A stretch of DNA of 64,000 nucleotides. Origin: Thermodesulfobium acidiphilum. Its GTDB lineage: Bacteria; Thermodesulfobiota; Thermodesulfobiia; Thermodesulfobiales; Thermodesulfobiaceae. The notes below the pieces were generated by a model, which ran no database searches, had not been told where the DNA came from, and was given only the letters and a program-made list of their open reading frames with translations. The position numbers were made by a program, and so were the translations under genes. Of this stretch, positions 6,918 to 30,300 are shown in pieces (position 1 is the first letter of the stretch; each line of letters begins with the position of its first letter). Location of the stretch: positions 980,916-1,044,915 of the forward strand of contig NZ_CP020921.1 of assembly GCF_003057965.1 (NCBI RefSeq), written 5' to 3'.

Positions 6918-7304
6918 ATGGTCTTTGCAAGCGCTATAAATTGCATGGATGGAAGAACCCAGGAACCTGTTATAAATTGGATAAAGAAAAACTACAACGT
7001 AAAATATATAGATATGATTACTGAAGCAGGTCCAATCAAAATAATTTCTGAAAACTCAGATATTTGCTTGATAAATTCTATAAAAGAAAGATTAAACATT
7101 TCTATAAACATTCACGGCTCAAAACTTATTGCAATAGTAGGACACTATGACTGTGCTAAAAATCCAGAAAATAAAAACACCCAAATAAAACAAATTAAAG
7201 ATTGTATAAATATAGTCAAACAATGGTATGATGTCGAAATCGTGGGCTTATATGTAAATGAAAATTGGCAGGTAGAGGAAATAGATATTTATAAAAATTC
7301 ATAA
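6918..7304 (+). CDS. Small beta-class-like putative carbonic anhydrase
   Basis: NCMDGR and GHYDC zinc-ligand motifs. Confidence 0.7.
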   Translation: MVFASAINCMDGRTQEPVINWIKKNYNVKYIDMITEAGPIKIISENSDICLINSIKERLNISINIHGSKLIAIVGHYDCAKNPENKNTQIKQIKDCINIVKQWYDVEIVGLYVNENWQVEEIDIYKNS

Positions 7305-9204: not shown

Positions 9205-10905
9205 GTGCTGGTTAATTTGCTTTTAGATATTTTGCAATTCACAGTTTTCTTTGTATTGCTGACATTATGTGTAAAACCACTTGGTTTGTATATATCAAAT
9301 ATCTTTGAGGGAAAACAAACTTTTCTTTCACGAATCATTTTTCCAATTGAGCAGCTTGTTTACAGATTAAGTTTTATAAACCCAGAAAACCAGATGGATT
9401 GGAAAGAGTATGCTTTGTCAATGTTACTCTTCAATTTGCTTGGATTTGTATTTCTTTTCCTGATACTTGTAGTGCAGCAATTTTTGCCACTAAATCCCGA
9501 ACACTTTAATGGTTTTCCATTCGACCTTGCTTTAAACACTGCCATAAGCTTCATTACAAATACAAACTGGCAAGCTTATGCAGGGGAATCATCTGCTAGT
9601 TATCTTACCCAGATGCTTGGTCTTACAGTACAAAATTTTCTTAGCGCTGCAACAGGCATTGCCATACTTATAGCGTTAATTAGAGGTTTTGTAAACAAAC
9701 AATCAAAAGCTATTGGAAATTTTTGGGTTGACACAACAAGAGCAACTTTATACATATTATTGCCATTATCAATAGTCTTTGCCATTTTTTTAATAAGTCA
9801 GGGGGTTATTCAAAACTTTGCAAATTATCAAACAGTTCATCTAATTTCTTCACAAACTATACCAATGGGCCCAGTTGCCTCTCAGGAATCGATAAAACTA
9901 TTAGGTACAAATGGTGGCGGTTTTTTCAACGCAAACTCAGCGCATCCATTCGAAAATCCTAATCCTTTAACAAATTTTTTTGAAGCATTTATGATAATTC
10001 TCATCCCCGCATCGCTTACATATACCTTTGGCAAAATGCAAAAAAACACTAGACAGGGTTGGGCAATTTATATAACAATGCTATTTTTATTCTTAACATT
10101 TATGAGTATTCAATATTGGGCAAATATCTCCTCCAATCCTATGGTCAGTAGTCTTGGAGTTTCAGGACACTATCTAGAGGGACAGGAAGTTAGATTTGGA
10201 ATTGGAGGAACTACACTTTTTTCTTCAATAACTACAGCAGTTGCATGTGGGGCTGTTAATGCGATGCATGATTCTCTTTTACCTATCGGCTCAATGATCC
10301 CTATGATTTTTATGTTGTCGGGAGAAACAATATTTGGAGGCGTAGGTTCTGGATTATATACAATGTTTGCTTTTATGATAATTGCTGTTTTCGTTGCAGG
10401 TCTAATGATCGGCCGTACACCTGAATTTTTGGGAAAAAAAATTGAAGTAAAGGAAATGTGGATGGCAATAATTATAGTTTTAACTTCAGGCTTACTTGTA
10501 TTGGTATTCACTAGCATTGCGCTTGTTACAAAAGAAGGTGTTAGCTCTATATTAAACCCTGGTCCGCATGGCTTGTCAGAAATACTCTACGCTTATGCAT
10601 CTACCGCAAATAATAATGGGAGCGCCTTTGCTGGTTTGAACGCAAATACTGTGTTTTATAATATTACTACAGCTATAGCTATGTTAATTGGTCGCTACGT
10701 GCCTGCAGTAGCTGCTATTTATATGGCAGGATCTCTTTCAGCTAAAAAATATGTACCTCCAAGCGTCGGCACTCTTCCAACAGACCGTATACCCTTTATG
10801 ATATGGCTTATGTTAGTTATCATCATTATTGGAGCACTAACTTTCTTTTCTGCTCTAGCATTAGGACCATTTCTCGAAAATATTCTTATGCAGAGAGGTT
10901 TTTAA
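9205..10905 (+). CDS. kdpA: Potassium-transporting ATPase subunit A (true start may be TTG at 9217)
   Basis: [20 protein letters not shown] and NNGSAF selectivity-filter motifs. Confidence 0.97.
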
Positions 10906-12963
10906 ATGAGTGCAAAAAAGTCAGATCTTTACAGCCCTGAAATATTTAAATCAGCTCTTATTAATTCCTTCAAAAAGCTAAATCCAAAAGATTTAATCTC
11001 AAACCCTGTTATGTTTTCTGTTGAAATCGGTAGCATACTAACTACTATTGAATTTATTCATGAAATTATAAGTGGTAGTTCAACCCCTCTTTGGTTTACA
11101 GGATGGGTTTCAGTGTGGCTGTGGTTCACAGTAATTTTTTCAAATTTTGCTGAAGCATTTTCAGAAAGCCGCGGTAAAGCAAGAGCCGAATCCTTAAAGA
11201 AATCAAAAACACAGATAATGGCAAAAAAAATCGATAAACCTACATTTGACAGCAAATTTGAGCTCATACCATCTACCTCACTAAAAAAGGGAGATTTTGT
11301 TCTTGTGGAACAGGATGATCTGATACCTGGAGATGGAGAGGTTGTCTCAGGTGCTGCTCTGGTAAACGAATCTGCAGTAACTGGAGAATCCGCACCAGTT
11401 GTAAGAGAGGCAGGAGGAGATAGAAGTGCAGTAACAGGAGGCACAAAGGTTATTTCAAATAGTATCATTGTAAAAATAACTTCAAACCCTGGAGAAACGT
11501 TTTTAGATAGGATGATTTCAATGGTAGAGAGTGCAAAGCGCCGTAAAACGCCAAATGAAGTTGCACTTGAAGTTCTACTAATAGCACTTACTGTGGTATT
11601 CTTTTTTGTAGTAATCAATTTACGAGCATTGTCAATCTATAGCGTTAACTCCTCGGGTCACGGTTCTCCCGTTTCACTTGTAGTGCTTATAGCCTTGTTT
11701 GTATGTCTTGCTCCCACAACTATTGCTGCGCTCCTCCCAGCAATAGGCATTGCAGGAATGGATAGACTTTTTAGAAAGAATGTTGTTGCTCTTTCTGGAA
11801 AAGCAGTAGAAGCAGCAGGAGATGTAAATGTATTACTTCTTGATAAAACAGGTACTATCACCCTTGGAAATAGACAAGCTGCAGATTTTATACCTGTTGG
11901 AAATTACACTAAAGAAGAGTGTGCCAAAATAGCTTTGATGTCATCTTTAACAGACGAAACGCCAGAAGGTAGAAGTATAGTGGTATTAGCTAAAGAAAAA
12001 TACAATTTACGTTTCCATGAATTACCTGCCAATGTCGAAACAATACCTTTTAGTGTAAAGACCAGAATGAGCGGAACAAACATCAATTCTCACAGATACC
12101 GTAAAGGTTCTTTAGACGCTATTAGTGAGTACATAACTCAAAATGGTGGAAAAATTCCAGAAAATTTGGAAGAAGTTGTTATGGAAATTTCAAAATTAGG
12201 TAGTACACCGTTAGTGGTCACTTTCGACAATGATATCGTAGGAGTTATAAATCTAAAAGATATATTAAAAACTGGCATAAAAGAAAGATTTATGCAACTA
12301 CGAAAAATGGGGATAAAAACTGTAATGATCACAGGAGACAATCCTCTTACAGCAGCTACAATAGCGGCAGAGGCAGGTGTAGATGACTTTCTAGCTCAGG
12401 CAAAACCTGAGGACAAGCTCAGACTAGTAAAAGAATACCAACAACAGGGTCTGATGGTCGCTATGACAGGAGATGGAACAAATGATGCTCCAGCTTTAGC
12501 TCAGGCAGATGTAGCAGTAGCTATGAATACGGGCACACAGGCTGCCAGAGAAGCAGCAAATGTAATAGACTTAGATTCCAGCCCTACAAAACTTCTGGAT
12601 ATAGTTGACATTGGCAAACAGCTTCTTATGACGCGAGGAGCTCTAACAACATTTAGTATATCAAACGATATAGCCAAATATTTCGTAATAATTCCTGCTG
12701 CAGTAATATCCATATACCCACAATTAAGTGTTCTAAATATAATGCAATTATCAAATCCTTTTTTGGCTATATTGTCAGCAGTAATCTTTAATGCAGTTGT
12801 GATACCACTTCTTACACCTCTAGCATTGAAAGGTGTTTGGTATAAACCGATGAATGCAGAAAGTCTACTTACATACAATCTCCTCATTTATGGCGGCGGC
12901 GGTATAATTGCTCCCTTTATTGGTATAAAGTTAATATACTTGTTTTTAAGCATATTTATCTAG
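10906..12963 (+). CDS. kdpB: Potassium-transporting P-type ATPase subunit B
   Basis: TGES, DKTGT and [10 protein letters not shown] motifs. Confidence 0.97.
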
Positions 12964-12974
12964 GTGAGGTAAAA

Positions 12975-13553
12975 ATGAAAAATTTAAAAAGCTGTATAAT
13001 GATTTTTATAATCTTAACTTTTATTACAGGAGTTTTATATCCACTGACAATTACTGCCATCGGACAAATATTTTTTCCATGGCAAGCCAATGGAAGCCTT
13101 ATATATCAAAACAAAACAGCAGTAGGCTCTGCCTTAATAGGTCAATCTTTCGACAGAAAAGATCTATTCTGGTCAAGACCTTCTGGAACACCTGATTATC
13201 CATATAACGCATTGTCCAGTGGTGGTTCAAATTTAGGGCCTACCAATCCCAAACTTATTTCAGAGATAAAAAGTAGAATCGAATTTTTAAAAGAAAACGG
13301 ATTAAAATTGCCAATCCCATCTGATCTGGTTATGGGTTCTGGCAGTGGACTCGATCCTGATATTACACCCGAATCAGCTATGGCTCAAATTCCAAGAATT
13401 TCAAAAGTTACAAACATTCCAGTCGAAACCTTAAAGGAACTGGTTATGAGCAATATTGAACCAAGAGATTTTGGATTTCTTGGAGCTGAAAGAGTAAATG
13501 TTCTTAAATTAAATTTAAAACTTTTAGAATTAGAGAAAAAATATGCCAGATGA
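12975..13553 (+). CDS. kdpC: Potassium-transporting ATPase subunit C
   Basis: QANGSL, SGGSNLGP and SGSGLDPDI motifs. Confidence 0.95.
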   Translation: MKNLKSCIMIFIILTFITGVLYPLTITAIGQIFFPWQANGSLIYQNKTAVGSALIGQSFDRKDLFWSRPSGTPDYPYNALSSGGSNLGPTNPKLISEIKSRIEFLKENGLKLPIPSDLVMGSGSGLDPDITPESAMAQIPRISKVTNIPVETLKELVMSNIEPRDFGFLGAERVNVLKLNLKLLELEKKYAR

Positions 13554-15477
13554 TGATTTAAAAAGACCTTCTCCTGAAGAAATGCTTCAGGTAGCTAAAA
13601 ATGAAGAAAAGTCCAAAAAGGGACAGCTTACAATTTATCTTGGATATGCTCCTGGGGTAGGTAAAACATACTCCATGCTTAGCGATGCCCATTTAAGAAA
13701 AAATGAAGGTATAGATATTGTAGTTGGATATGCAGAAACTCATAATCGTCCAGAAACCGAAAAGCTTTTAGAGGGTTTAGAGGTTATACCTCCATTAATA
13801 GTAGATTATAAAGGCATAAAATTAAAGGAGATAGATTTTAAAAAAATACTCCATAGGAGACCACAAATTGTAATTATAGATGAATTAGCTCATACTAATC
13901 CTCCAAGTTTTCCTAATTCAAAGAGATATCAGGACATAGAAGAATTATTAAATGCTGGAATAGATGTTTATACAGCTGTTAATGTACAACACATAGAAAG
14001 CTTTAAAGATATTGTCCTACAAATTTCAAAAATTCCCATAAAAGAAACGGTACCAGATAATTTTTTTCAACAAGCTTTTGAAATTAAATTGGTAGATCTT
14101 ACACCTGAAGAGCTTTTAAAAAGACTCAAAGATGGCAAAATATATGTCGAAAATATGGCCAGAAGTGCAATTGATCAGTATTTTAAAGTAGGAAACCTTT
14201 TAGCTTTAAGACAAATTGCATTAAGAGTTGTAGCAGATAGCGTAGATGAAAAAATGCGACTATATATGATGCAACATGCAATAGCAGGACCATGGTCCAT
14301 AAAGAAAAAAGTACTTGTAGGGATCTTTGCTAGTCCATATGCAAAACAGCTGGTAAGAGCAACGTATAGATTTGCAAGTGAAATCGATGCACAATGGATA
14401 GCTATTCATGTAGAAACACAAAAAAACAAAACTTTCAACAAGGAAGAAATTGAATGGCTTAATGGAGCACTTGATCTGGTAAGAAAACTTGGTGGTCAAA
14501 TTGTCTGGTTAAAAGGAGATGACGCAGCAAAAGAAATAATCGATTACGCAAAGGGGCACAATGTCACAAAAATTGTTATAGGAAAGCCAAAAAAGTTTAA
14601 TTTATTTATAAAAAGTATACCGGAAAAAATCATAACAGGGACAAAAAACATCGATATATATATGCTTGACTTAAAGGAAGAAAAGATTGATCTTAAGAAA
14701 AAAGAAATTAAATTTACCTATTCAAATCAATATTTAATTGCACTATTCAACATATTTGTAGTATCGATTTTTGGATATATTTTAAAAGGATACTTAAATA
14801 ACATAAATATAATATCTTTATTTTTATTGGCTCTAATTTTTAATGCGTTATTTCTTCAATTTTTACCAGTATTAGTGTCAACCGTTGTAAGTTTGTTGAT
14901 TCTTGATTTCTTATTTATACAACCCTACTATAAGTTTACAATACCAGATTTAAATTACTTTTTCACTATTATTGTTTATTTTATTATAGTTCTAACAATA
15001 AATATATTGACATCAAAACTTAAAGACATTATTAAAACTCTAAAAAATAGTCAAAAAAGAGAAATTGGTTTATACGAATTAAGCACAGATCTTGTTATGG
15101 CAAAAAATATTAATCACGTTTTGTCATTAACGATAAACTATATCAAAAAATTATTTTCATGTGAAACAGCAATATTTATTAAGAAAAATGACAAAATCCA
15201 CCTTGGTGCAAAAACAGAGAAATTCGAAATTAGCCCTGAAATCAAAGGAATAGCGTCATGGTGCTTAATAAACAAAAAAGCAGGAGGATTTGGAACTGAT
15301 ACTTTCTCAAATACAGACTTGCTTTATTTGCCAATGCTTACTGCAAAGGATTCCTATGGTGTAATAGCAATAAAAGTTTCAGACAAAAAAAATTTACAAA
15401 TCGACGATAGAATAGCACTTGATGCTATAGCCAGACTTAGTGCCATGGCACTGGAAAGGATATCCAATTTACCTTAG
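13543..15477 (+). CDS. kdpD: KdpD sensor region (KdpD-N, Usp, TM, GAF) lacking the histidine kinase domains
   Basis: GYAPGVGKTY and DELAHTN motifs; protein ends at ALERISNLP after the GAF domain. Confidence 0.88.
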   Translation: MPDDDLKRPSPEEMLQVAKNEEKSKKGQLTIYLGYAPGVGKTYSMLSDAHLRKNEGIDIVVGYAETHNRPETEKLLEGLEVIPPLIVDYKGIKLKEIDFKKILHRRPQIVIIDELAHTNPPSFPNSKRYQDIEELLNAGIDVYTAVNVQHIESFKDIVLQISKIPIKETVPDNFFQQAFEIKLVDLTPEELLKRLKDGKIYVENMARSAIDQYFKVGNLLALRQIALRVVADSVDEKMRLYMMQHAIAGPWSIKKKVLVGIFASPYAKQLVRATYRFASEIDAQWIAIHVETQKNKTFNKEEIEWLNGALDLVRKLGGQIVWLKGDDAAKEIIDYAKGHNVTKIVIGKPKKFNLFIKSIPEKIITGTKNIDIYMLDLKEEKIDLKKKEIKFTYSNQYLIALFNIFVVSIFGYILKGYLNNINIISLFLLALIFNALFLQFLPVLVSTVVSLLILDFLFIQPYYKFTIPDLNYFFTIIVYFIIVLTINILTSKLKDIIKTLKNSQKREIGLYELSTDLVMAKNINHVLSLTINYIKKLFSCETAIFIKKNDKIHLGAKTEKFEISPEIKGIASWCLINKKAGGFGTDTFSNTDLLYLPMLTAKDSYGVIAIKVSDKKNLQIDDRIALDAIARLSAMALERISNLP

Positions 15478-18101: not shown

Positions 18102-19268
18102 TTAAACAATATAAGACCTAAAATACTTAGCTCCAGCTATCCCTACGTAATCGTAGTCAACATCCCAATAAAAACGGGCACTCATAGCAACATGGGGTAG
18201 GGGAATAAATCTCTTTTTTTGATATAACAATCTTTCATAAAGAGGATCAGCAATTATGTAATCGATATCAGATTGATTCATTAAATCGGAAATCCTTGAT
18301 TCAGAACTGCTAAATTCATCTTCTCCTGAAAACCTGATAAAACTGTTTTGGAGTTCTTTTAGCGTCGATAATAAATTTTTTAAAGGCAGAACTGAAATAA
18401 TTCTTGATTTAATATTTAGCTCTGCCTCCAAAAAGAACTTAAGACTAAGAGCCATAATTGGTTCTCCAATAATTAAAGCTTTTTTAGAAGATTTAAGATT
18501 AAATGTTAAAGAAAAATCTTTACCTTTAATTAATTTAAGATAATACTCCTGCAATTTTTCTCCAATCGGAATACCAACAATATATGGGATTTTAAATGCT
18601 TCATACATGTATTGCGCTAATGATAGCCCACTTAAACCTACTACAAGGTTTAAACTGGCTGAACTTGACTTTTTAATATCATCCAAAGGAGAAAATCCCC
18701 AGGTGCTTATTACCTTATGGCCACTACTTTCTAATAGAGAAATCAGAGGTTTAAGGTGTTTAAGATGACCAACATCCAAGTGAATAGCTCCTAAGATGTT
18801 TACAGAATTTGGTACTTTTGGAAGTGATTTTAGAAAAACCTGAGCTACAGCTAGATTTGCCTTTTCAGCTCCCTCAAGATAGCTTTCTGTCCCTGAAGTT
18901 TTAATACAAAGCACAGGTGTATTCAATCTTTTTTGAATAGCCTGAGTTAAACCTCTTAAGTCTACTCCAATAATAGCTGAAACTGGTGTACCACAAAGAG
19001 CAACAAAGTTCCTGTTCAAATCTTGAGCTACGTTTACAATTCTTTCTACAAACTCAGGATCTTTCCCCAAAATAACATCCATCTCAAGAAGTCCAGCTCC
19101 AACTATGGTAGTTTTGCCTCGGTACCACCTGGGTTCATCTTCAATATTTATATGCCAGGCGCCACCTGCAGGACCATAAACGACAATTATTCCACCAAGC
19201 TCATAAAGAGCACTACTAGCACCAAAATACCCAGATGGAAGTGGTAAAAGATTGTGCAAAAAGTTCAT
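18102..19268 (-). CDS. Nitrogenase component-1-like (Nfl) subunit, Cys-poor
   Basis: SALYELGG...GPAG...DEPRWY, DVILG, GTPVSAIIGVD and VNILG match the nitrogenase oxidoreductase fold; adjacent to nifH-like gene. Confidence 0.8.
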   Translation of the reverse strand: MNFLHNLLPLPSGYFGASSALYELGGIIVVYGPAGGAWHINIEDEPRWYRGKTTIVGAGLLEMDVILGKDPEFVERIVNVAQDLNRNFVALCGTPVSAIIGVDLRGLTQAIQKRLNTPVLCIKTSGTESYLEGAEKANLAVAQVFLKSLPKVPNSVNILGAIHLDVGHLKHLKPLISLLESSGHKVISTWGFSPLDDIKKSSSASLNLVVGLSGLSLAQYMYEAFKIPYIVGIPIGEKLQEYYLKLIKGKDFSLTFNLKSSKKALIIGEPIMALSLKFFLEAELNIKSRIISVLPLKNLLSTLKELQNSFIRFSGEDEFSSSESRISDLMNQSDIDYIIADPLYERLLYQKKRFIPLPHVAMSARFYWDVDYDYVGIAGAKYFRSYIV

Positions 19269-19276
19269 ATACCCTC

Positions 19277-20569
19277 CTAAATCAAAAGATTGTGCTTATA
19301 AATCCAGTCATAGTTACTGATGGGTTTGGAGACATTTCGTATAATTTCTTCAAAAAGCCATAGCGCAGCTTCGAAACCAAATACCTGATTTTGGTAACGT
19401 GAAAGCGGAATATTAACAGCTCTGGAACAATAAACGCCAGCATCTACCCCAAAAGCAAGATCAATGCCGTCAAAAGCATTAGACTCTTCGTTCAAGTACG
19501 GATGAGCAACATTATAAACATAAGTCTCAGGACTGTTTTCTGAAAGCCATTTAATATATTTCCACTCATAGGCTTTTGGAACATTTCTGACAAATATAGC
19601 CTCTATCCTGGCACCAAACTGTACTAAAGCACAGGCTAATTCAAAAGGGCTACCAAGAATACTACAACCAACAGCTACTCGTTTATCCTTTAAAATGTCT
19701 AATTGAAGTCGCTCGTTGGTAATATCTTTAAATGATAAATAATTAAGTTTCCGCTGCAATATTCTTTCAAGACTTTGATATTGAAGCTCAATTTCTTTTA
19801 TCCCATAACTCACAGGACAAAAAATATAAGGGATACCCCATTCCGTTTCAATTTTTTTGGCCAGAATATTACCAAGCGGGTGTATCACAATATTTAAACT
19901 GGCATTTGCCATCTCTTTTAAATCAATAATATTCTTACAGGTAGGAATTTGATAAATTTGTTCAAAACCGATTTCTTTTAATAAATTGTAAAGTTCACTC
20001 TTCTCTGATAATGGCAAGAAAGTACCAAGAATATTGATAACCTTTTTATCCTCTTTCGTTCTTTTGTCCTTTAAAAATTCAAATAAAGCAGTATATGCAA
20101 TCTCAAAGGGTGAAGGTTTAAGACCAATAGTTAAAGGAGCCATTACCAGATAAATAACCTCTATACCTAGTTCCTCTTTGATTTCTCGCATAACTTCTTT
20201 ATAGTCAGTACCCAAAATGTGATCGCAACATGTACCTGCCAAAATTAGGATTTGAGGCGATTCCTTTAAGGCAACTTCTTTTAAAGCTAATTTTACTCGG
20301 TCAAAGTGCCTACCCATAATAATATCTATTTCTTCTAGTGGTAACATATAAAAACGTTTAAAAAAACCCCTCGCATGAGCCATAAATGCCGAGTGTCTTA
20401 AACAGGCCAACGGTCCTATCATCAAACAGACACTATCCGGCAAAAGTAAGGTAGTCTCCACAACTCCCCATCCAGAAAGATTAGGCCCTACTGCTTCCAG
20501 AGGGGCAAAAGGGAAGTCGTTTTTAGCCTTAAAATCAATAATCTTTGTCCGAGTCTTTTCTATCAGCAT
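19277..20569 (-). CDS. Nitrogenase component-1-like (Nfl) subunit
   Basis: [28 protein letters not shown] and INILG motifs. Confidence 0.8.
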
Positions 20570-21318
20570 AGGTCTTTCTCCACTATATACCTGGCTAGCT
20601 GAATAAAGGTTTGACTTATTGGAAGATCGGGATCAAGTTCAATTGTAGTCTTCCCTTCAGATTCGGCTTTATTGATATTTTCATCTCTAGGAATGATGCC
20701 TAAAATTCTGGTATTCATTTCTTTAGCAAAAGTCTCTACCCTTTCTATTTCATCAGAGATATTTTTTCTATTTAAAATCAAGCCTCCAAGGCGGGCATAG
20801 TTGCGTGCAGTAAAGTTTCTAATGGCCTGAATTATATTTCTGGCTGAATATAATGCTAGCTTCTCTCCAGAAGTAACAATAAGTACTGTTTCAGCATAAC
20901 CTTCCCACATGGGCACAGCAAATCCACCACATACGACATCACCTAAGACATCATAGAAAATCACATCAGGTTTATACGTTTCATAAGCGTTCAAATCGTT
21001 TAAAAGCTCAAGCGCAGTAACGATACCCCGACCAGCACATCCCTGTCCTGGCGTAGGCCCTCCAATTTCAAAACAAACTGTATTTTTAAAACCAATTTTT
21101 GTTATTTCATCTATAGTATTAGGAATACCATTTTCTTCTATAAACCTGAGTATAGATTTAGGGGGGTTACCTCCCAAGAGGTTCATTGTAGAATCTGCTT
21201 TAGGATCACAACCTATTTGCATAACCTTCTTTCCCATCAAAGCAATAGCAGCAGATAGGTTTGATGTTATTGTAGACTTTCCAATCCCACCTTTACCGTA
21301 TATTGCTATTTTTTTCAT
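20563..21318 (-). CDS. Nitrogenase iron-protein-like ATP-dependent reductase (NifH/BchL/CfbC family, divergent Nfl type)
   Basis: [25 protein letters not shown] and [11 protein letters not shown] motifs; only 251 aa. Confidence 0.92.
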
Positions 21319-21322
21319 AGAT

Positions 21323-22324
21323 TTATAAATCTCCTTTCAACTTTAACGAATGTCCTTTATCCTTTGATATCTGGAGTTCTGCCTTTTTTATAACTGATTC
21401 TGCCTCTTCTATATCAACATAACGCTTTGCCGGTGCACATTGAAATTCGAACTCAACCTTTTCCTCCCTACTTTTTGGAAACGGATTACAATTAGGCATT
21501 AAGACATTGCATCCACCCAGCAAGAAACAAAGAAGTTGACCGTTTTCAGGTTTAAGTGTTGCCACAGTGTTTGCTGCTGCTATGTGTGTATTTTTGGTAA
21601 CGATACGTGTCAGTGCAAAAACTCTCAGCATAAGATCAAAGCTCCCCGCAGGATAACTTTTTAGTGGCGTTTGAGGATGTGGGATAAAGGGCCCAATATT
21701 AATCATATCAGGTTGAAAGTCCTGAAAGAAGATAATATCATCAGCCAGATCGTCGATGGTTTGAAATGGTAATCCTACGATATTCCCAGCTCCTACTTGA
21801 AAACCTATCTTCCTTAAAAACTCCAAGGCATTTAACCTGTCTTTAAGCTTTTTGCCTGGTCGCATCCTTTCGTAAAGCTTTTCATTCATCGTTTCATGTT
21901 TCATTAGATACCTATCAGCGCCAGCATCTCTAAAAGCTCTGTAATCATCATAATCTCTTTCTCCAAGGCTAAGAGTAATAGCTACATCGTGTTTTTCTTT
22001 AATCCTTTTAATAATGTTACACACTTTTTCTCTTGTATAAAAAGGATCCTCTCCAGATTGTAAAACTACAGTTTTTATACCCTTTTGGGCGATCTCACAA
22101 CCTAGACAAACTATTGTATCTTCATCCATACGGAATCGTTCCATTTCTTTGTTACTCTTTCTTAACCCACAATAAAGATCATCACATATACAATAATTAG
22201 AAAAGTGAACAACACCCCTTATATGAGCTCTATTGCCACAGTACTTTTTTCTAACTTTTACTGCTTCTGTGAATATATCATTACTGTTTTGTACTAACAA
22301 TTCGATAACTTCTTCTCTGTTTAT
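21323..22324 (-). CDS. hydE: HydE-like radical SAM protein with atypical cluster motif (start either ATA 22324 or TTG 22300)
   Basis: [39 protein letters not shown] and [10 protein letters not shown]; adjacent to hydF. Confidence 0.75.
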
Positions 22325-23580
22325 AATGTTTTCAACCTCTTTCTTTCATTTTTAAACGCCATCAGTGCAGCAGGAAATGGATCAAGAGTTCTTTTTAAAA
22401 CCCCCTGCAGAAAAGATATAGCTATACCATAATTTGTTATTGGAACTTTAGCCTCTCTTGCTATCTGTATTCGTGAAAGCATCTCTCTTCTATTGAGGAC
22501 ACATCCTGCGCAATGAATAACTAGCTTATAACTTGAAAGGTTATCAGGGTAATCTCTCCCAGAATAAACATCTATTTGTAAATCTCCTCCTACATATTGT
22601 CTAAGCCACCTCGGAATTTTCACACGACCAATATCATCTTCTATTGGATGATGGGTGCATGCTTCAGCTACCAAAATCTTATCCCCAGGTTGAAGTGCAT
22701 CAATATAGGCTGCTCCCTTCGCCTGCTCTATTAGATCCCCTTTGTAGCGGGAAAAGAGTATCGAAAACGTCGTAGCCTTCACATCCTCTGGTGTATCAGC
22801 AACCATCTTTAAAACAACCTGAGAATCACAAATAACTATATCAGGTTTTTTGTTTAACGTTGATATGGCATGGGATAACTCCCTCTCTTTTACAATTAAA
22901 GCCATTGCATCGTTATCAAGCGTATCCCTTATCGTTTGGACCTGTGGAAGTATAAGTCTTCCCTTTGGTGCCTCAAGATCAATGGGTACAACCAATATGG
23001 CTAAGCCTCCAGGTGATAGCAAATCGCCTATCAAAGTAGGTGGCTGCAAGAAATCAACCGGGCAAACATCTATGATCTGTTTTTTTAGCGCACTTATATA
23101 TGAATCCTTGTTTATCCTATCTACACTTGAAACAGAAATTATATGCTCATTAAAAATCGATTTAAGACTATTAACAAAATTAATGGATGGTTTCATCAAA
23201 TCAATTTTATTGATTATTGCTACTATTGGAATATTCCTTTTTTTAACTTCCTCTAAAACGTGTTCTTCGTAATCAGTCCACTCGTTTGGTTCTAATAAAA
23301 GAAGAACAATATCTGCTCTATTTAAGACATTATATGTTTTCTCAATTCTCAAAGTTCCTAAAACAGATCTGTCATCAAGACCCGCAGTATCCAAAAAAAT
23401 AACTGGCCCTATTGGCAAAAGTTCCATAGCTTTTTGAACAACATCCGTTGTTGTGCCCGGAACAGGAGAGGTAATAGCGAGGTCTTGCCCTATAACCATG
23501 TTTAGAAATGAAGACTTTCCAACATTTGTCCTTCCAAAAAGCGCAATATGTAAACGATTTCCACTCGGTGTCTTATTCAT
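22321..23580 (-). CDS. hydF: [FeFe]-hydrogenase maturation GTPase HydF
   Basis: GRTNVGKS, DTAG, NKID, PKGRLILPQVQ, EACTHH and HCAGC motifs. Confidence 0.96.
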   Translation of the reverse strand: MNKTPSGNRLHIALFGRTNVGKSSFLNMVIGQDLAITSPVPGTTTDVVQKAMELLPIGPVIFLDTAGLDDRSVLGTLRIEKTYNVLNRADIVLLLLEPNEWTDYEEHVLEEVKKRNIPIVAIINKIDLMKPSINFVNSLKSIFNEHIISVSSVDRINKDSYISALKKQIIDVCPVDFLQPPTLIGDLLSPGGLAILVVPIDLEAPKGRLILPQVQTIRDTLDNDAMALIVKERELSHAISTLNKKPDIVICDSQVVLKMVADTPEDVKATTFSILFSRYKGDLIEQAKGAAYIDALQPGDKILVAEACTHHPIEDDIGRVKIPRWLRQYVGGDLQIDVYSGRDYPDNLSSYKLVIHCAGCVLNRREMLSRIQIAREAKVPITNYGIAISFLQGVLKRTLDPFPAALMAFKNERKRLKTL

Positions 23581-24943
23581 CCCTATACCCTAACGATGTC
23601 AGGTTGTAAGGTGAAAGCATTCTATCAACCACTTCCTTCCCTTGCTTTTCATTCAGAAAAGCTCTAAAATCAGTTTTTCCTTTTTTGAGAAATTCCTTTA
23701 TCAAATTCTCGGCTTCTTTATAGCCTATAACTGGTAGAAGAGCTGTAACAATTGTCAGACTTTTATCTATATACTCTTTACATTTTTCTTCATTAGCCTT
23801 TATTTCTAAAACGTGTTCGCAGAGATTGATATCTAAATTTGTAAGGATTTCAAGCGATTCAAGTATGGCAAATGCAAGCAATGGGATAAACTCACATATC
23901 TGAAGCGTTGACCTACTTACAGTTTCAGTTATTAAAAAATCATTTGCCATTACCTTTAGTCCTACTTGCATAGCTGCTTCACAAAGCACAGGATTTACCT
24001 TTCCTGGCATAATAGAAGAACCAGTTTGAACGGCTGAAAGTTCTATCTCGCCTAATAAGTTTAAAAGTCTCAAGTCATTAAATATCTTAACTATGTTTGA
24101 TGCATGTGCCTTTAAGATACCCGACACCTCAACAAAAGGATCTGCATTTGCAGTTTCGGCCGGCACATTTTCACCTCTTGAAAGTCCAAGTCCCGTTATT
24201 TCTCTAAGTTTTTCGATAACAAGAAAAATGTAATTTTTCGGAGCAGTAAGACCAGTGCCAACAGCCGTACCTCCCAAATTCGTTACTCTTAAACGCTCTT
24301 CGCATTTAAAAGTTCTCCATCTATCTCTTGAAATAGCTTCCGCAAAAGCTCCAAATTCAGCCCCCAAAGTTATTGGAACTGCTTCTTGAAGTTCTGTCCG
24401 TCCGATCTTTACTATACCCGCAAATGCCTTTTCTTTTTTTTGGAATGCACCTTGAAGTTTTGCAACAGCATTGCTTAATTCACGTAATTTAAAAATGGAA
24501 GCAACTTTAACTGCTGTGGGATAAACGTCATTTGTCGATTGATGAAGATTAACATCGTGTATTGGATGTACAACATTATAGTCACCTTTCTTGCTCCCAA
24601 GAATTTCAATAGCCCTGTTAGCGATAACTTCGTTAATATTCATGTTTGTAGATGTTCCCGCTCCCCCCTGAAGTGCATCAAGCGGGAATTGATCATCGAA
24701 TCTTCCTTCGCATATCTCGTCGCAAGCAATCTCAATAGCCTTAGCCTTGTTCTCATCCAGAAAGCCAAGTTCATGATTTGCCATACAACAGGCCTTCTTA
24801 ACCATTGAGAGTGCTCGTATTAAAGCTTTTGGAACCTTATAATTGCTAAATCTAAAATTTCTCCTTGCTCTTTCGGTATGAAGGCCCCAATAAACATTAT
24901 CCGAAATATCAATTTTACCTAAAAGATCGCTTTCAATACGCAT
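23573..24943 (-). CDS. aspA: Aspartate ammonia-lyase (fumarase/aspartase family)
   Basis: QGGAGTSTNMN, QSTND and GSSIMPGKVNP; ATG at 24943 follows GAAAGGAA. Confidence 0.9.
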   Translation of the reverse strand: MRIESDLLGKIDISDNVYWGLHTERARRNFRFSNYKVPKALIRALSMVKKACCMANHELGFLDENKAKAIEIACDEICEGRFDDQFPLDALQGGAGTSTNMNINEVIANRAIEILGSKKGDYNVVHPIHDVNLHQSTNDVYPTAVKVASIFKLRELSNAVAKLQGAFQKKEKAFAGIVKIGRTELQEAVPITLGAEFGAFAEAISRDRWRTFKCEERLRVTNLGGTAVGTGLTAPKNYIFLVIEKLREITGLGLSRGENVPAETANADPFVEVSGILKAHASNIVKIFNDLRLLNLLGEIELSAVQTGSSIMPGKVNPVLCEAAMQVGLKVMANDFLITETVSRSTLQICEFIPLLAFAILESLEILTNLDINLCEHVLEIKANEEKCKEYIDKSLTIVTALLPVIGYKEAENLIKEFLKKGKTDFRAFLNEKQGKEVVDRMLSPYNLTSLGYRDE

Positions 24944-24966: not shown

Positions 24967-25008
24967 GGGCTTAATAAGCCCAAACAGCATGGGCTTAATA
25001 AGCCCAAA
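24967..25008 (-). terminator. Tandem identical hairpins followed by a U-rich tract (terminator/attenuator or stabiliser)
   Basis: GGGCTTAATAAGCCCAAA at 24967-24984 and 24991-25008; TTCATTTTTT follows on the minus strand. Confidence 0.6.
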
Positions 25009-25024
25009 AACCTCAGTTCAAATT

Positions 25025-25696
25025 TTACGTTGTTTTCTCTACTTTTTCTAATTCTTTTTCAACCCACTTTGGATTATGGTGCTTTAAAACTTTTAAAGGC
25101 ATATCTCCTTCACCCCATTTCCACATAGCTTTAAAATCTTCAAAGTTGATTATCGAAAGCGGGAGATGAATAAATATAACCAACAAGGTTACAACGACCC
25201 CTAGCCATACATGCCACGTAAAAAGTAAGCTCGTAAAATCCCTTGGCATAGCTTCCCTATAGAGATAGAGTAACCACCCAGATAAACCTTCAAATACAAT
25301 TGAGAACACAAACAGGATATATGCAAGCTTTTGACCTGCGTTGTACTTTCCAACAGGAGCAGTTTCCTCAGGTCCAAATGGAATACCAAACTTCCTTGGA
25401 TAACCACCAAGATTTTTGAACCATCTAAAGTCATCCATATCCCATCTGAAAAGCTCATCTAGCATAAGATAAAACCTATCTGGGTTTATGAAAACAAATG
25501 CAAGGAAATTGAATGTAAAAATTACAGCAGCAATAACATGAATATCCATAAGGAAGCCACCCGCCGCCGTTGTTTTATCTACCAGATGGAAATAAACAAG
25601 GCTACCCGTTATTATAAGGATAAACCATGTAACAGCATTGGTATTGTGAAATACCTTTTCTGAAATTGGAAAACGAAGTGCTCTTTCATCATCCAA
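25025..25696 (-). CDS. Cytochrome b membrane anchor of the periplasmic [FeFe]-hydrogenase (FdnI/HydC type)
   Basis: Four TM helices with His ligands and GKYNAGQK motif. Confidence 0.88.
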   Translation of the reverse strand: MDDERALRFPISEKVFHNTNAVTWFILIITGSLVYFHLVDKTTAAGGFLMDIHVIAAVIFTFNFLAFVFINPDRFYLMLDELFRWDMDDFRWFKNLGGYPRKFGIPFGPEETAPVGKYNAGQKLAYILFVFSIVFEGLSGWLLYLYREAMPRDFTSLLFTWHVWLGVVVTLLVIFIHLPLSIINFEDFKAMWKWGEGDMPLKVLKHHNPKWVEKELEKVEKTT

Positions 25697-26048
25697 CGTT
25701 ATGCCCTCCTCTTAGAATAAGATTTGTCCTGCTATAGTAATCTGTATGAAGAAGTTCTTCTGCAATCTTGCTTAATGGATGTTCCGCAAACTCACTATAA
25801 AACATCTTTACAGCAGGATTTTGATCTGATACAGCAAGACCTTTTTCCTGTAGTCTTGCATCATCTTTATACAATCCAGCCTGTCTCATTTTCATATAAT
25901 TATTTCTATTTTCGAATACGTCAGTTATTTTATAACCCGCTATAGCTATAGCAGCAATTATTATTCCAGTTACTTTTAAAAACCCTCTTCTACTTATAAT
26001 AGCAGCAACTGGTTTTTCCCGGTAATCATAAGGAATTTTTTCACTCAT
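25689..26048 (-). CDS. hydB: [FeFe]-hydrogenase small subunit with Tat signal
   Basis: SRRGFLK, RQAGLYKDD, NPAV...FY and LLHTDY motifs. Confidence 0.9.
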   Translation of the reverse strand: MSEKIPYDYREKPVAAIISRRGFLKVTGIIIAAIAIAGYKITDVFENRNNYMKMRQAGLYKDDARLQEKGLAVSDQNPAVKMFYSEFAEHPLSKIAEELLHTDYYSRTNLILRGGHNVG

Positions 26049-26074
26049 ACTTTCCTCCTATCAAACATTTTTTC

Positions 26075-27424
26075 TTAAACCTTAAGGCGTAGGGGTAATA
26101 ATGGGTCAATCCACGATGTTCCCATTGGTTGAACAGGTTGCCCACCGCCATTAATACATCCACCAGGACAATTCATCACCTCTATAATATCGTACGGCGA
26201 CTGTCCACTAAGAACATCCTTAACAACTTTATCAAGATGGTTTTTTATACCGTTTACAGTTGCTGTTCTCACTGTAATAGTTTTTCCATCCTTAAGCGGA
26301 AGAGTAATAGTAGCTTCTTTAACTCCATACTTTGTATAACCTCTAACTGCATATATGTCCCAACTTGGAGGATTTTTCCCTGAAACCACCTGGTATGCAT
26401 ATCTCAACGCCGCTTCCATAACACCGCCGCTATTTCCAAATATCGTTGCACCACCCGTATACATTTCTGTTATCTTCTCCTCCGCCTCTTCAGGCATCTC
26501 AAGCGGGTTTATACCTTTTCTTCTAAATACTTCAGCAAGATCTCTTGTTGTAAGAACAGCATCTATATCAGGAAACTTCGGCGTATTATCAGGTATAATC
26601 TTTTTCTCCCTTAAAAACTTCCATGCAGCATGAAATTCAGGCCTGCTTGCTTCAAAAATTTTTGCAGTACAAGGCATTATACCTACCGTATAAACCTTCA
26701 CCGGATCAACTTTCCAGATGTTTAATGCTGCCCATGTCTTTGCCGAAGGACCAGCCATAAGCATAGGAGATCTTGCACCCGATATATGTGGTAAAAGGGC
26801 AGCATAGTTAATCTCTGCATATCTTACCCATGCAGGACAGCAGGATGTAAAGTGTGGAAAGGGATGTTTTCCAAATTCTTCCAATTCTTTACTTCTTTCA
26901 CCCAACACCCAATAACGGATTTTCCCTACTATTTCACCACCTTCTTCCAAAATCGTCTGGTCAGCCGCAAGATTATTTTCGTAAACCTTAAAACCTGCCT
27001 TCTTCATTGCACTATGAAGTTTTTTAACTGTGAGTGTTCCTGGAGGTGCACCAAATTCTTCAGCAATAGCAACTCTTACAGCCGGTGCAGGTATTCCCAC
27101 AACTACCACTTTAGGATCATTTAACTTTCCCATTACTTCATCAACAAAACTCATTTGTTCAATAGCTCCGAATGGACAATTGATAAGACACTGACCACAT
27201 GCAATGCACTTATCCAAGTCGATCTTGTGTGCAACCCCAATTTCACCCATCATAGCATCAGCTGGACAATTCTCTCTACATGTGTCACATCCAACACATT
27301 TATCCTGGTTCACACGTATAATTCCTCTTAATTCCCCTGGGTTATATGTACCCTGAGGCTCTGATCCGCTCACTCTGGCATCAGGTGGCGGTAGAAAAGT
27401 TCCCACTTTCATTACATTTCCCAT
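26075..27424 (-). CDS. hydA: [FeFe]-hydrogenase large subunit (2x[4Fe-4S] + H-cluster), periplasmic type
   Basis: Two CxxCxxCxxxCP motifs; TSCCPAW, MPCTAK and EVMNCPGGCINGGGQP. Confidence 0.95.
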   Translation of the reverse strand: MGNVMKVGTFLPPPDARVSGSEPQGTYNPGELRGIIRVNQDKCVGCDTCRENCPADAMMGEIGVAHKIDLDKCIACGQCLINCPFGAIEQMSFVDEVMGKLNDPKVVVVGIPAPAVRVAIAEEFGAPPGTLTVKKLHSAMKKAGFKVYENNLAADQTILEEGGEIVGKIRYWVLGERSKELEEFGKHPFPHFTSCCPAWVRYAEINYAALLPHISGARSPMLMAGPSAKTWAALNIWKVDPVKVYTVGIMPCTAKIFEASRPEFHAAWKFLREKKIIPDNTPKFPDIDAVLTTRDLAEVFRRKGINPLEMPEEAEEKITEMYTGGATIFGNSGGVMEAALRYAYQVVSGKNPPSWDIYAVRGYTKYGVKEATITLPLKDGKTITVRTATVNGIKNHLDKVVKDVLSGQSPYDIIEVMNCPGGCINGGGQPVQPMGTSWIDPLLPLRLKV

Positions 27425-29472: not shown

Positions 29473-30300
29473 TTATCTGAGCATTACTACTTGCTGCCAA
29501 CCCATATTGGCTGGAATACTACAGGCACAGCTTCCTTTTATGCGTGATTCTATATCGTCGTTACAAAATTCAAGAGTATATCTAACTAACTTTCCAGCCA
29601 TTTTCCCCAAATCACATCTGCTTGAAGTCTCAATATCTGTGGCTAAATTTTTAAGGAATGATATCTCTGAATCTGAAATTGAACCATCAAAAACTTTTTG
29701 GACTATTTCTTGCATTCTTTTTGTACCAATCCTGCAAGGAGTACATTCGCCACATGAATTTTTCTGAGTATAATCAAGGAAAAACTGAACCATATCGACC
29801 ATACATCGATCTTTTTCCCAAAAAAGCTTTCCTGCTGAACCAACTGCAGCAATCATTTTTGTCAGATCTCGCCAATCGAAATTTGAAGGCGCTTTTAAGG
29901 AAAGAGGACCAAGCTGTTTGATGTGTTCAACAAAATCCTTTGCAACGCGAGAAAATTTTAGCCCCTCGGCACCCGAAATCCATTCAAGCCTTATTCTTTC
30001 TTTTGGAATTCCTATAACCTCTAGGAATCTTGTTAGTAGATTAAATCTTCTGTGAGCATAATAATTTCCTGTACGATAGTGACAATCCCCCGGATGGCAC
30101 CCTGAAACTAGAACCCCATCAGCACCGGATAAAAAAGCTTCTACAACGAATTCAGGTTCAACTCTTCCGGAGCACGGTACTCGAATAGCATACACATTGG
30201 GAGGATAGTCATATCTTAACGAACCTGCCAGATCGCATCCCGCATAGCTACACCAATTACATAAAAAAGCAATGATTTTAGGCTCAAAGCTTTCCTCCAT
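29473..30300 (-). CDS. MvhD (hydrogenase delta, [2Fe-2S]) domain fused to a NuoF/HydB-type [4Fe-4S] domain
   Basis: FLCNWCSY, RVPCSGRV, GCHPGDCHY and WISGAEG, then CMVD...SCGECTPCRIG...SRCDLG. Confidence 0.88.
   Translation of the reverse strand: MEESFEPKIIAFLCNWCSYAGCDLAGSLRYDYPPNVYAIRVPCSGRVEPEFVVEAFLSGADGVLVSGCHPGDCHYRTGNYYAHRRFNLLTRFLEVIGIPKERIRLEWISGAEGLKFSRVAKDFVEHIKQLGPLSLKAPSNFDWRDLTKMIAAVGSAGKLFWEKDRCMVDMVQFFLDYTQKNSCGECTPCRIGTKRMQEIVQKVFDGSISDSEISFLKNLATDIETSSRCDLGKMAGKLVRYTLEFCNDDIESRIKGSCACSIPANMGWQQVVMLR

Follow-up and report, generated by a model that had tools for sequence, protein, structure and literature searches.

A nitrogenase-like gene cassette joined to a divergent HydE paralogue: a candidate HydG-independent route to the H-cluster

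What are nitrogenase-like genes doing at the end of an operon for the maturation of [FeFe]-hydrogenases? The question is raised by a stretch of 64,000 nt from Thermodesulfobium acidiphilum (hereafter the window), in which aspA, hydF and a divergent hydE paralogue, here called hydE*, are followed on the same strand by nflH, nflD and nflK, encoding a NifH-like ATPase and two proteins that resemble the subunits of nitrogenase component 1. To our knowledge, HydE, HydF and HydG are regarded as a universal and sufficient set for the biosynthesis of the H-cluster, and we know of no biological source of its CO and CN ligands other than the tyrosine chemistry of HydG. An earlier note on this DNA had left two roles for the nitrogenase-like proteins, either in H-cluster assembly or, together with the radical S-adenosylmethionine (SAM) protein, on some unspecified substrate. 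The tests that were run favour the first of these over the second.

We favour a process where the hydE*-nflHDK cassette, together with HydF and AspA, builds the [2Fe]H unit, so providing what is probably an alternative, HydG-independent and mostly HydE-independent route to the H-cluster. Observations of several kinds underlie this proposal, namely the anatomy of the operon, the conservation of its gene order, complementarity with HydG, an altered radical-SAM motif, and linkage to Hyp genes.

The cassette and its relation to HydG

The six genes aspA-hydF-hydE*-nflH-nflD-nflK (Table 1) are co-oriented, with gaps or overlaps of 4–20 nt, and lie downstream of two [FeFe]-hydrogenases. The maturation operon begins with aspA, which overlaps hydF by 8 nt, followed by gaps of 20 nt (hydF to hydE*) and 4 nt (hydE* to nflH), a 7 nt overlap (nflH/nflD) and a final gap of 8 nt (nflD to nflK). 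This tight packing had been described in the earlier note, and the coordinates of the open reading frames (ORFs) reproduce all of the junction figures quoted there; both hydrogenases that it placed upstream are present, on the same strand. As the gene 3' of nflK, encoding a major facilitator superfamily (MFS) transporter, is convergent, nflK is the last gene of the operon. HydF contains its dimer and tetramer domains (Pfam/NCBIfam), and its residues C308, H310, H311, H356, C357 and C360 are kept across 16 family members.

The window's genome is a single contig of 1.77 Mb (99.99% complete), and HydG has no match over the cut-off in a profile search of the whole of it, the top match being hydE* itself with 56 bits against a cut-off of 312. 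Nor was HydG found by tblastn of the genome, using as query a real HydG from a related genome. Only one gene in the complete genome exceeds the cut-off of the HydE profile, and this is again hydE* (290.5 bits), so that canonical HydE is not found with that profile. The genome has a single NifH-family gene, its sole PF00148 genes are nflD and nflK, with nifE and nifN not found genome-wide, and there is no match to NifB. What had been claimed for the window, that it holds no nifB, nifE, nifN, bch or cfb genes, extends to the entire genome. HypC-D-E and HypF are encoded elsewhere in the genome, unlinked to the cassette, and carbon monoxide dehydrogenase (CODH) is also encoded elsewhere.

A scan of species genomes returned 33 related loci, the gene content of which was determined by tblastn with the window proteins. 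They come from at least five lineages (Desulfofervidaceae, Thermodesulfobacterium/Thermodesulfatator, Desulfobacterales, Desulfobacteraceae and Desulfovibrionaceae), and at every locus with enough upstream DNA hydE* lies immediately 5' of nflH-nflD-nflK. A chance arrangement can be excluded, as the order hydE*-nflH-nflD-nflK recurs at all sufficiently long loci among the 33; the cassette is both conserved and mobile. The pair aspA-hydF is found upstream on the same strand at 12 loci (L008–L011, L014–L016, L020, L023, L026, L032 and L036) and nearby on the opposite strand at three others (L019, L024 and L029), while hydF alone is upstream at L039, a cut contig. [FeFe]-hydrogenase genes are also present at L008–L011, L019 and L020. 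In the thermophile loci, including the window, hydE* begins about 20–150 nt after hydF; beside the cassette in 10 mesophile loci aspA-hydF was not found within the DNA available there. Linkage of close homologues to hyd genes, which the earlier note had proposed to survey, therefore takes the form of a HydE-like gene that is always adjacent, usually accompanied by aspA-hydF and [FeFe]-hydrogenase genes. A word-indexed search of 5.8 billion proteins gave 73 relatives of NflD, the best being that of Thermodesulfobium narugense (76% identity), followed by Lebetimonas (60%) and many Desulfovibrionaceae (about 47%).

A distinguishing feature of HydE* is its radical-SAM motif. The protein exceeds the equivalog cut-off of TIGR03956 (288.4 bits vs 254.6) and matches the Thermotoga maritima HydE structures with 264 bits over residues 9–277, and its motif reads C37-x3-D41-x2-C44, which departs from the canonical CX3CX2C. 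The term “divergent radical SAM” used previously can thus be made precise as CX3DX2C instead of CX3CX2C. Asp occupies the position of the middle Cys in all 31 cassette copies, while Cys is found there in 12 of 12 canonical HydEs from the same families, which adjoin HydF or HydG; the canonical motif is FSN-x-C-x3-C-x-Y-C-G, as against C-x3-D-L/I-Y-C-G in the cassette type. A database survey of the best 120 relatives of HydE* gave the same division, with Asp in 80 of 81 full-length relatives at ≥59% identity and Cys kept in all 36 at ≤52% identity. Further changes are fixed in the clade (E->H32, D->N139, E->Q168, N->H239 and R->Q255), and a spare Cys occurs at +1 or +2 from the first motif Cys in 29 of the 31 locus copies. 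Cassette copies are 59–77% identical to the window protein, and HydE* is 36–44% identical to canonical HydEs. A quick tree search, in which one distant outgroup was used, puts the 31 cassette proteins into one clade (Shimodaira–Hasegawa-like approximate likelihood-ratio test 95, stem 1.32) apart from the 12 canonical HydEs.

The lone exception among the 81 close relatives, P0254, is 78% identical to HydE* and keeps the canonical middle Cys (FSNYCISDCLYCG). It sits on a contig of 1.4 kb.

Genomes that carry the cassette nearly always lack HydG. HydG was called present where its score exceeded the HydG cut-off, and the samples comprised the genomes holding the loci, the Desulfovibrionaceae, the Thermodesulfobacteria, and the window's own genus together with distant genomes. 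Over all samples, 5 of 38 cassette genomes have HydG, as against 54 of the 64 HydF-positive genomes that lack the cassette. In the genomes holding the loci, HydG is over the cut-off in 2 of 31. Among 151 sampled Desulfovibrionaceae genomes (69 with HydF, 49 with HydG, 18 with NflD), those with NflD have HydF in 17 and HydG in 3 of 18 cases, whereas HydG is found in 43 of the 52 that have HydF without NflD; of the nine without a hit, one has a fragment of HydG where its contig ends. The contrast recurs in two further separate samples, with 0 of 3 vs 8 of 9 in the class Thermodesulfobacteria (all 63 genomes), and 0 of 2 vs 3 of 3 in the window's own genus and 17 distant genomes.

Within the genus, the window's genome and that of one congener have NflD and HydF but no HydG; the other two congeners (G231 and G232, 94% and 100% complete) have neither HydF nor HydG nor NflD. 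HydF and the cassette thus co-occur, both being present in two of the four genomes and both absent from the other two, and as the latter have no HydF, HydG or cassette, the [FeFe] maturation set is variable within this genus.

All five cassette genomes with HydG also carry a second, canonical HydE, while 26 of 36 cassette genomes examined have a single HydE-family gene. One cassette genome contains a remnant of HydG (L047:1567-1893, + strand), consisting of residues 32–140 only and located between hydA-small and aspA. The order on this contig is hydA-large, hydA-small, HydG remnant, aspA, canonical hydE, hydF, with the remnant internal to the contig, and it has the appearance of what is left after the deletion of hydG. 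In two HydG-less cassette genomes the canonical HydE sits on a long branch (2.5 and 1.38 vs a median of 0.15). We regard the remnant and these long branches as signs of decay of the canonical genes.

The nitrogenase-like proteins and their Hyp neighbours

NflH, NflD and NflK were placed by curated cut-offs and by matches to solved structures, in place of a tree with named references. NflH remains below the cut-offs for NifH (TIGR01287, 313.4 vs 394.35), CfbC (NF033200, 289.4 vs 402), BchL (198 vs 345) and BchX (185 vs 331); among solved structures, NifH is its best match with 248 bits, and BchL reaches 162 bits. For both NflD and NflK, the best curated family is NifE, with only 75.9 and 48.9 bits against a cut-off of 505. 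Their scores are also below those for CfbD (TIGR03282, 22.5 vs 268), BchB (44.7 and 37.1 vs 490), BchN (25 vs 420) and BchY (27 vs 425). The earlier note had raised the possibility that the proteins fall inside a characterised clade, and they are instead below all curated cut-offs, the best solved match of NflD being the alpha chain of methylthio-alkane reductase, MarD (9fmg_A/9d9u_A), with 41 bits, or 77 with a profile. The best solved sequence match of NflK is BchB, at 22 bits.

NflH keeps the residues expected of a NifH-type ATPase and [4Fe-4S] donor, with the P-loop G8-K9-G10-G11-I12-G13-K14-S15 and C94 and C130 invariant in 34 copies. From their positions we infer that C94 and C130 correspond to Cys97 and Cys132 of Azotobacter vinelandii (Av) NifH, which we take to be the numbering of its cluster cysteines. 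The same numbering is used in a review of nitrogenase-like (NFL) enzymes (PMC13474568).

In NflD, C56, C114, C302, C381, H59, H230 and H356 are conserved. NflDK retain two of the six P-cluster Cys positions, both in NflD (C56 and C114) and none in NflK. By profile alignment, C114 pairs with the P-cluster Cys of the NifD motif “tCPvGLIGDD”, while the position of Cys275, the ligand of the iron-molybdenum cofactor (FeMo-co), is Leu229, followed by the invariant H230. Conserved cysteines are absent from NflK, in which the motif YGPAGGAWHINIEDEPRWYR stands in place of the “GxxGC” of relatives; of the 30 copies shown, 28 share it exactly and the other two carry one substitution each.

The folds predicted by AlphaFold2 (AF2; mean predicted local distance difference test, pLDDT, 88 for NflD and 78.5 for NflK, with the conserved N-terminal loops as the low-confidence parts) are those of nitrogenase component 1. 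Template-modelling (TM) scores are 0.65–0.75 to NifDK, NifEN, AnfK, the dark-operative protochlorophyllide oxidoreductase (DPOR) and MarDK, with about 0.7 for NflD and, for NflK, a closest fold in the DPOR subunit BchB (0.73–0.75). Fold searches with the two models gave no clear nearest component-1 subfamily.

A profile search of 1.84 billion representatives extends the NflD family to 296 clusters at E <= 1e-30, some of them with D and K fused, and the same two cysteines are retained in the wider alignment. Named members of this wider family are from Spirochaetia, Treponema (fused D-K) and Hydrogenispora. In Spirochaetia, a sister NflHDK (4 loci, L110–L113) stands alone between the genes for EF-G and SecA; as it has no hyd context, the hyd linkage belongs to the core clade. 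A metagenome scan with the protein P0236, aimed at the context of this wider family, found no relative. The two-cysteine relatives of NflD (P0074–P0221) thereby make up a large uncharacterised family, in which the fused D-K forms are 770–1000 aa long.

Recurrent neighbours of the cassette, identified by clustering all ORFs of the loci followed by Pfam annotation, include genes for the Hyp proteins. In the thermophile layout (L008, L010 and L011) the order is hydA-large, hydA-small, TM1266-like, HypE-like, aspA, hydF, hydE*, nflHDK, HypF, HypD, and L009 has the TM1266-like gene and HypF. The mesophile layout consists of a gene resembling the [NiFe]-hydrogenase large subunit, hydE* and nflHDK, followed by HypC-HypD-HypE (10 loci), HypC-HypD (1) or HypC alone (4). 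Of the 24 loci with 1 kb or more of DNA past nflK, 18 have a Hyp gene that starts no more than 3.5 kb beyond it. The cassette-linked copies are supported by Pfam (HypD with 478 bits, HypF domains, HupF_HypC and AIRS/AIRS_C), and all copies examined have the motifs that we take to be hallmarks of these families, presumably a C-terminal PRIC in HypE, an N-terminal MC[LIV]..P in HypC and GPGCPVC in HypD: four HypE end with PRIC, four HypC begin with MCLA[VI]P, and two HypD contain GPGCPVC. Two HypD genes, one linked to the cassette and one elsewhere, are present in 4 of 5 genomes checked.

The large-subunit-like gene (PF00374, 320–340 bits, about 590–620 aa) has no small-subunit gene beside it. 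At all 23 mesophile loci that extend far enough upstream it directly precedes hydE*, in a position between hydF and hydE*; the thermophile loci have no such gene. The protein keeps the C-terminal DPCxxC; of the N-terminal motif, which we assume to be RxCGxC in [NiFe] large subunits, it lacks the first Cys and so has one of the two Cys, plus a His.

The TM1266-like gene, annotated as “iron-only hydrogenase system regulator” (PF21699), precedes the HypE-like gene at L008 (3976-4287, + strand) and is also found at L009–L011. A tblastn search of the window's genome with this gene had no hit at E <= 1e-5.

A possible maturation route and its alternatives

In the known pathway, HydG makes cysteinyl-Fe(CN)(CO)2 from tyrosine, and HydE, by radical attack on sulfur, converts this product to an Fe(I) species that dimerises (PMC10114646); AspA provides the bridgehead nitrogen of the dithiomethylamine ligand in vitro, and its gene is often associated with hyd operons (PMC11736057). 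The downstream half of this pathway, with HydF as scaffold and AspA as nitrogen donor, is intact in the operon. The upstream half, HydG and canonical HydE, we think has been replaced by HydE* and NflHDK, with Hyp chemistry recruited in most carriers; gene content makes this replacement the probable one. The operon thus resembles the HydE/HydF/HydG system in having an ordinary HydF and AspA and a HydE-family radical-SAM gene behind [FeFe]-hydrogenase genes, and differs from it in having no HydG, no canonical HydE, a CX3DX2C motif, three nitrogenase-like genes fixed to hydE* and, in most relatives, Hyp genes that join the cluster.

Two other assembly lines offer a likeness. A radical-SAM enzyme, a component-1-like heterodimer and a NifH-type ATPase also make up the NifB-NifEN-NifH line for FeMo-co, in which NifEN is a component-1-like heterodimer that need not be catalytic. 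Unlike there, the partner is HydE-like rather than NifB-like, the scores are 76 and 49 bits against 505, and Cys at cluster positions number two in NflD and none in NflK; the likeness is an analogy of design, not membership. The HypCDEF system for Fe(CN)2(CO) synthesis is represented by bona fide HypC/D/E/F beside the cassette in those 18 of 24 loci, often as second copies, and in mesophile clusters by an acceptor resembling the [NiFe] large subunit. Its setting differs, as here it is embedded among [FeFe] maturation genes and the large-subunit-like protein has no adjacent small subunit.

How might such a route work? Hyp-type machinery would supply a CN/CO-bearing iron unit in place of the tyrosine-derived one of HydG, with HypE/F providing CN from carbamoyl phosphate and HypC/D serving as the Fe(CN)x(CO)y scaffold, to which mesophiles would add the orphan large-subunit-like protein as a carrier. 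In the window's genome, both types of hydrogenase would depend on the one HypCDEF set, which is unlinked. The iron unit would be received by HydE*, in a pocket inherited from HydE for cysteinyl-Fe(CO)2(CN). ATP hydrolysis by NflH would then drive low-potential electrons into NflDK, which would carry out the reductive step or steps that canonical HydE achieves via the 5'-deoxyadenosyl radical (reduction of Fe(II) to Fe(I), C-S cleavage and dimerisation, possibly with adjustment of the CO/CN complement). The product would pass to HydF, where the AspA-fed dithiomethylamine bridge would be installed as in the known pathway. A role of NflHDK in reduction would fit the loss of the canonical radical-SAM cysteine in HydE*. 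The specific hand-over, in which Hyp-ligated iron is held by HydE*, reduced and coupled to an Fe(I)-Fe(I) dimer by NflH/NflDK and passed to HydF, we put forward tentatively, as one possible version that may well prove wrong.

Several points weigh against this reading, which rests wholly on comparative genomics. The cassette is not strictly exclusive of the canonical genes, as five cassette genomes keep HydG and canonical HydE, and it could add a function rather than replace one. The Fisher test for HydG vs cassette gives p = 1e-12, a value that overstates the evidence because the genomes are related. A HydG match is also lacking in 10 of the 64 HydF-positive cassette-free genomes; these are probably incomplete metagenome-assembled genomes (MAGs), so that calls of HydG absence are noisy. 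HydE* could be an ordinary HydE, as it passes the HydE cut-off and aligns with T. maritima HydE, and the spare Cys found in most copies might restore a three-Cys site. No Hyp gene follows nflK in 6 of the 24 loci (L012, L014, L015, L022, L023 and L032), and at the window's own cassette there is no Hyp and no large-subunit-like neighbour. The Spirochaetia clade, which is the closest sister of NflHDK, has no hyd or radical-SAM neighbour. Hyp units are Fe(CN)2(CO), while the HydG product is Fe(CN)(CO)2, so that the proposed Hyp hand-over would need an additional, hypothetical editing of ligands. Finally, CO need not come from the cassette, as the genome encodes CODH. This CODH likewise weakens an idea considered separately, that NflHDK is the obligatory source of CO.

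Of several possible alternatives, one takes the cassette, the large-subunit-like protein and the dedicated HypCDE to make a different organometallic enzyme or cofactor, with the large-subunit-like protein as the client. The adjacency of hydF and aspA would then reflect shared regulation or precursors, and H-cluster maturation without HydG would use something else. The mesophile clusters do resemble a self-contained unit, as the large-subunit-like gene and HypCDE bracket the cassette in 23 of 23 mesophile loci with enough upstream DNA and aspA-hydF was not found beside it in the 10 loci mentioned above; HydG and HydE are moreover kept beside the cassette in five genomes. We nevertheless consider this explanation unlikely, though far from negligible, because the thermophile versions, including the window, have no large-subunit-like gene and yet place hydE* within about 20–150 nt of hydF, and because it leaves unexplained the absence of HydG from 33 of 38 cassette genomes, the joint gain or loss of HydF and the cassette in the window's genus, and the choice of a HydE paralogue as radical-SAM partner. 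It is a good deal less probable that HydE* is simply the ordinary HydE of the lineage and NflHDK an unrelated, hitch-hiking reductase of the Mar/Isr kind, acting in C-S cleavage for sulfur or on some other small substrate. The characterised Group IV NFL enzymes do cleave C-S bonds and have radical-SAM partners (PMC13474568), MarBHDK (Group IV-C) and IsrBHDK (Group IV-F) likewise pair a radical-SAM protein with a nitrogenase-like reductase of three subunits, NflD has MarD as its best solved relative, and the score of HydE* is above the HydE cut-off. MarD is, however, matched with 41–77 bits, the cluster ligands differ, the partner is of HydE type rather than NifB type in a genome with no NifB, and no recognisable sulfur-assimilation gene occurs among the Pfam-annotated cassette neighbours; of the sequences of this kind, the one compared by score was MarD. 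Hitch-hiking would also have to accommodate a four-gene order that is fixed across distant lineages and a HydE* that is only 36–44% identical to the canonical HydE of the same genome, and it leaves the complementarity with HydG unexplained.

Very improbable, in our view, is a tetrapyrrole reductase of the DPOR, chlorophyllide oxidoreductase (COR), CfbCD or Group VI kind. The fold of NflK is nearest to DPOR BchB, and the Group VI NFL proteins of Elusimicrobia likewise have divergent D/K subunits with few P-cluster Cys, no NifB partner and radical-SAM neighbours (PMC13474568; 10.1101/765248). All of the CfbC, CfbD, BchL, BchN and BchB scores given above fall well short of their cut-offs, however, the genome has no further component-1 gene, and tetrapyrrole genes were seen at none of the loci examined. 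Group VI is described as having its own context of B12/HemN-type radical-SAM and tetrapyrrole genes and a NifH that is sister to group V (10.1101/765248), whereas NflH scores nearer to NifH than to BchL, with NifH and CfbC as its nearest families, and a HydE paralogue is the only radical-SAM neighbour; this comparison is one by description. It is extremely unlikely that NflHDK is a cryptic or minimal nitrogenase. Homology alone, such as the 248 bits of NflH to NifH structures, speaks for it, while the genome has no NifB, NifE or NifN, the Nif cut-offs are missed widely, and of the nitrogenase ligands only two of six P-cluster Cys positions are retained, with Leu at the FeMo-co Cys position.

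If a HydG-independent route of the kind favoured here is confirmed, a natural and recurrent replacement of HydG would overturn the assumption that the HydEFG set is universal. NFL enzymes would gain a kind of function outside the chemistry of N2, tetrapyrroles and C-S bonds. Should the more tentative hand-over from Hyp to HydE* and NflHDK hold as well, the nitrogenase architecture would have a third use, in organometallic cofactor assembly for a hydrogenase, and the maturation pathways of [NiFe]- and [FeFe]-hydrogenases would be connected biochemically for the first time. Producing [FeFe]-hydrogenases in heterologous hosts could also benefit from a maturation kit that needs no HydG. The proposal can be tested directly, since few parts are involved and cultivated Desulfovibrionaceae are among the carriers.

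A literature search, with subscription journals and supplements outside its range, found no paper in which H-cluster maturation is connected with a nitrogenase-like system; the hyd-neighbourhood networks in the supplement of PMC11736057, which was likewise outside this search, may list nitrogenase-family neighbours. The 2026 Chem Rev review of NFL enzymes states that gene context is of little help for orphan groups beyond sulfur and tetrapyrrole links (PMC13474568), and a word search of it gave no HydE, HydF, HydG, “hydrogenase maturation” or Desulfovibrio. The Group VI preprint (10.1101/765248) likewise makes no mention of HydE or hydrogenase maturation.

Features of the window and its surroundings

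The features are collected in Table 1. Families of the window ORFs were assigned with Pfam and NCBIfam profiles and their curated cut-offs.

Table 1. Coordinates of the maturation operon, the adjoining hydrogenase genes and examples of the large-subunit-like gene. Positions are those of the 64,000-nt stretch unless a locus is named; ORF coordinates and junctions in the window are on the minus strand.
Feature	Position	Strand	Remarks
nflK, component-1 beta-like subunit, 388 aa	19268..18102	-	PF00148 94 bits
nflD, component-1 alpha-like subunit, 430 aa	20569..19277	-	PF00148 126 bits
nflH, NifH-like ATPase / [4Fe-4S] electron donor, 251 aa	21318..20563	-	PF00142 292 bits
hydE*, cassette-type HydE paralogue, 325 aa	22300..21323	-	TIGR03956 288 bits, cut-off 255
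hydF, H-cluster scaffold GTPase, 419 aa	23580..22321	-	TIGR03918 551 bits, above cut-off 326
aspA, aspartate ammonia-lyase, 461 aa	24958..23573	-	TTG start; NF008909 558 bits, above cut-off 510
Two overlapping terminator-like hairpins	24967..25006	-	Between cytochrome b gene and aspA
Periplasmic-type [FeFe]-hydrogenase	25025..27424	-	Large subunit, twin-arginine translocation (TAT) small subunit and cytochrome b
Cytochrome b, 223 aa	25696..25025	-	Of the periplasmic-type [FeFe]-hydrogenase
TAT small subunit, 119 aa	26048..25689	-	Of the periplasmic-type [FeFe]-hydrogenase
[FeFe]-hydrogenase large subunit, 449 aa	27424..26075	-	H-cluster motifs TSCCPAW, MPCTAKIFE, EVMNCPGGCINGGG
Second [FeFe]-hydrogenase, A6-like, 590 aa	29454..27682	-	NF040763 870 bits, above cut-off 765
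FlpD / NuoF-type Fe-S protein	30300..29473	-	PF02662 and PF10589; precedes the 590-aa [FeFe]-hydrogenase
Large-subunit-like gene	L014:6389-8161	+	Example; 21 further loci beside this and the next
Large-subunit-like gene	L032:6286-8151	+	Example

For aspA an alternative start exists, an ATG at 24943, which lies 15 nt inside the TTG-started frame. The hairpins upstream of it may form the boundary between the structural and maturation operons; a scan of the region for terminators gave seven terminator-like sites, which is not above shuffled sequences (mean 8.1), so that this evidence is weak, and the numbers from a promoter scan of the region were not above shuffles either.

The periplasmic-type [FeFe]-hydrogenase is a presumed client of the maturation genes. 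The second enzyme, of 590 aa, has normal second and third H-cluster motifs, while its first is TSCSPGW; with the usual first motif taken to be TSCCPxW, a serine stands in for one of the two paired cysteines. Elsewhere in the window, a 577-aa ORF (7304-9037, + strand), to which no Pfam family could be assigned at E <= 1e-6, is located just 5' of the potassium-pump operon kdpABC-kdpD (9205-15477).

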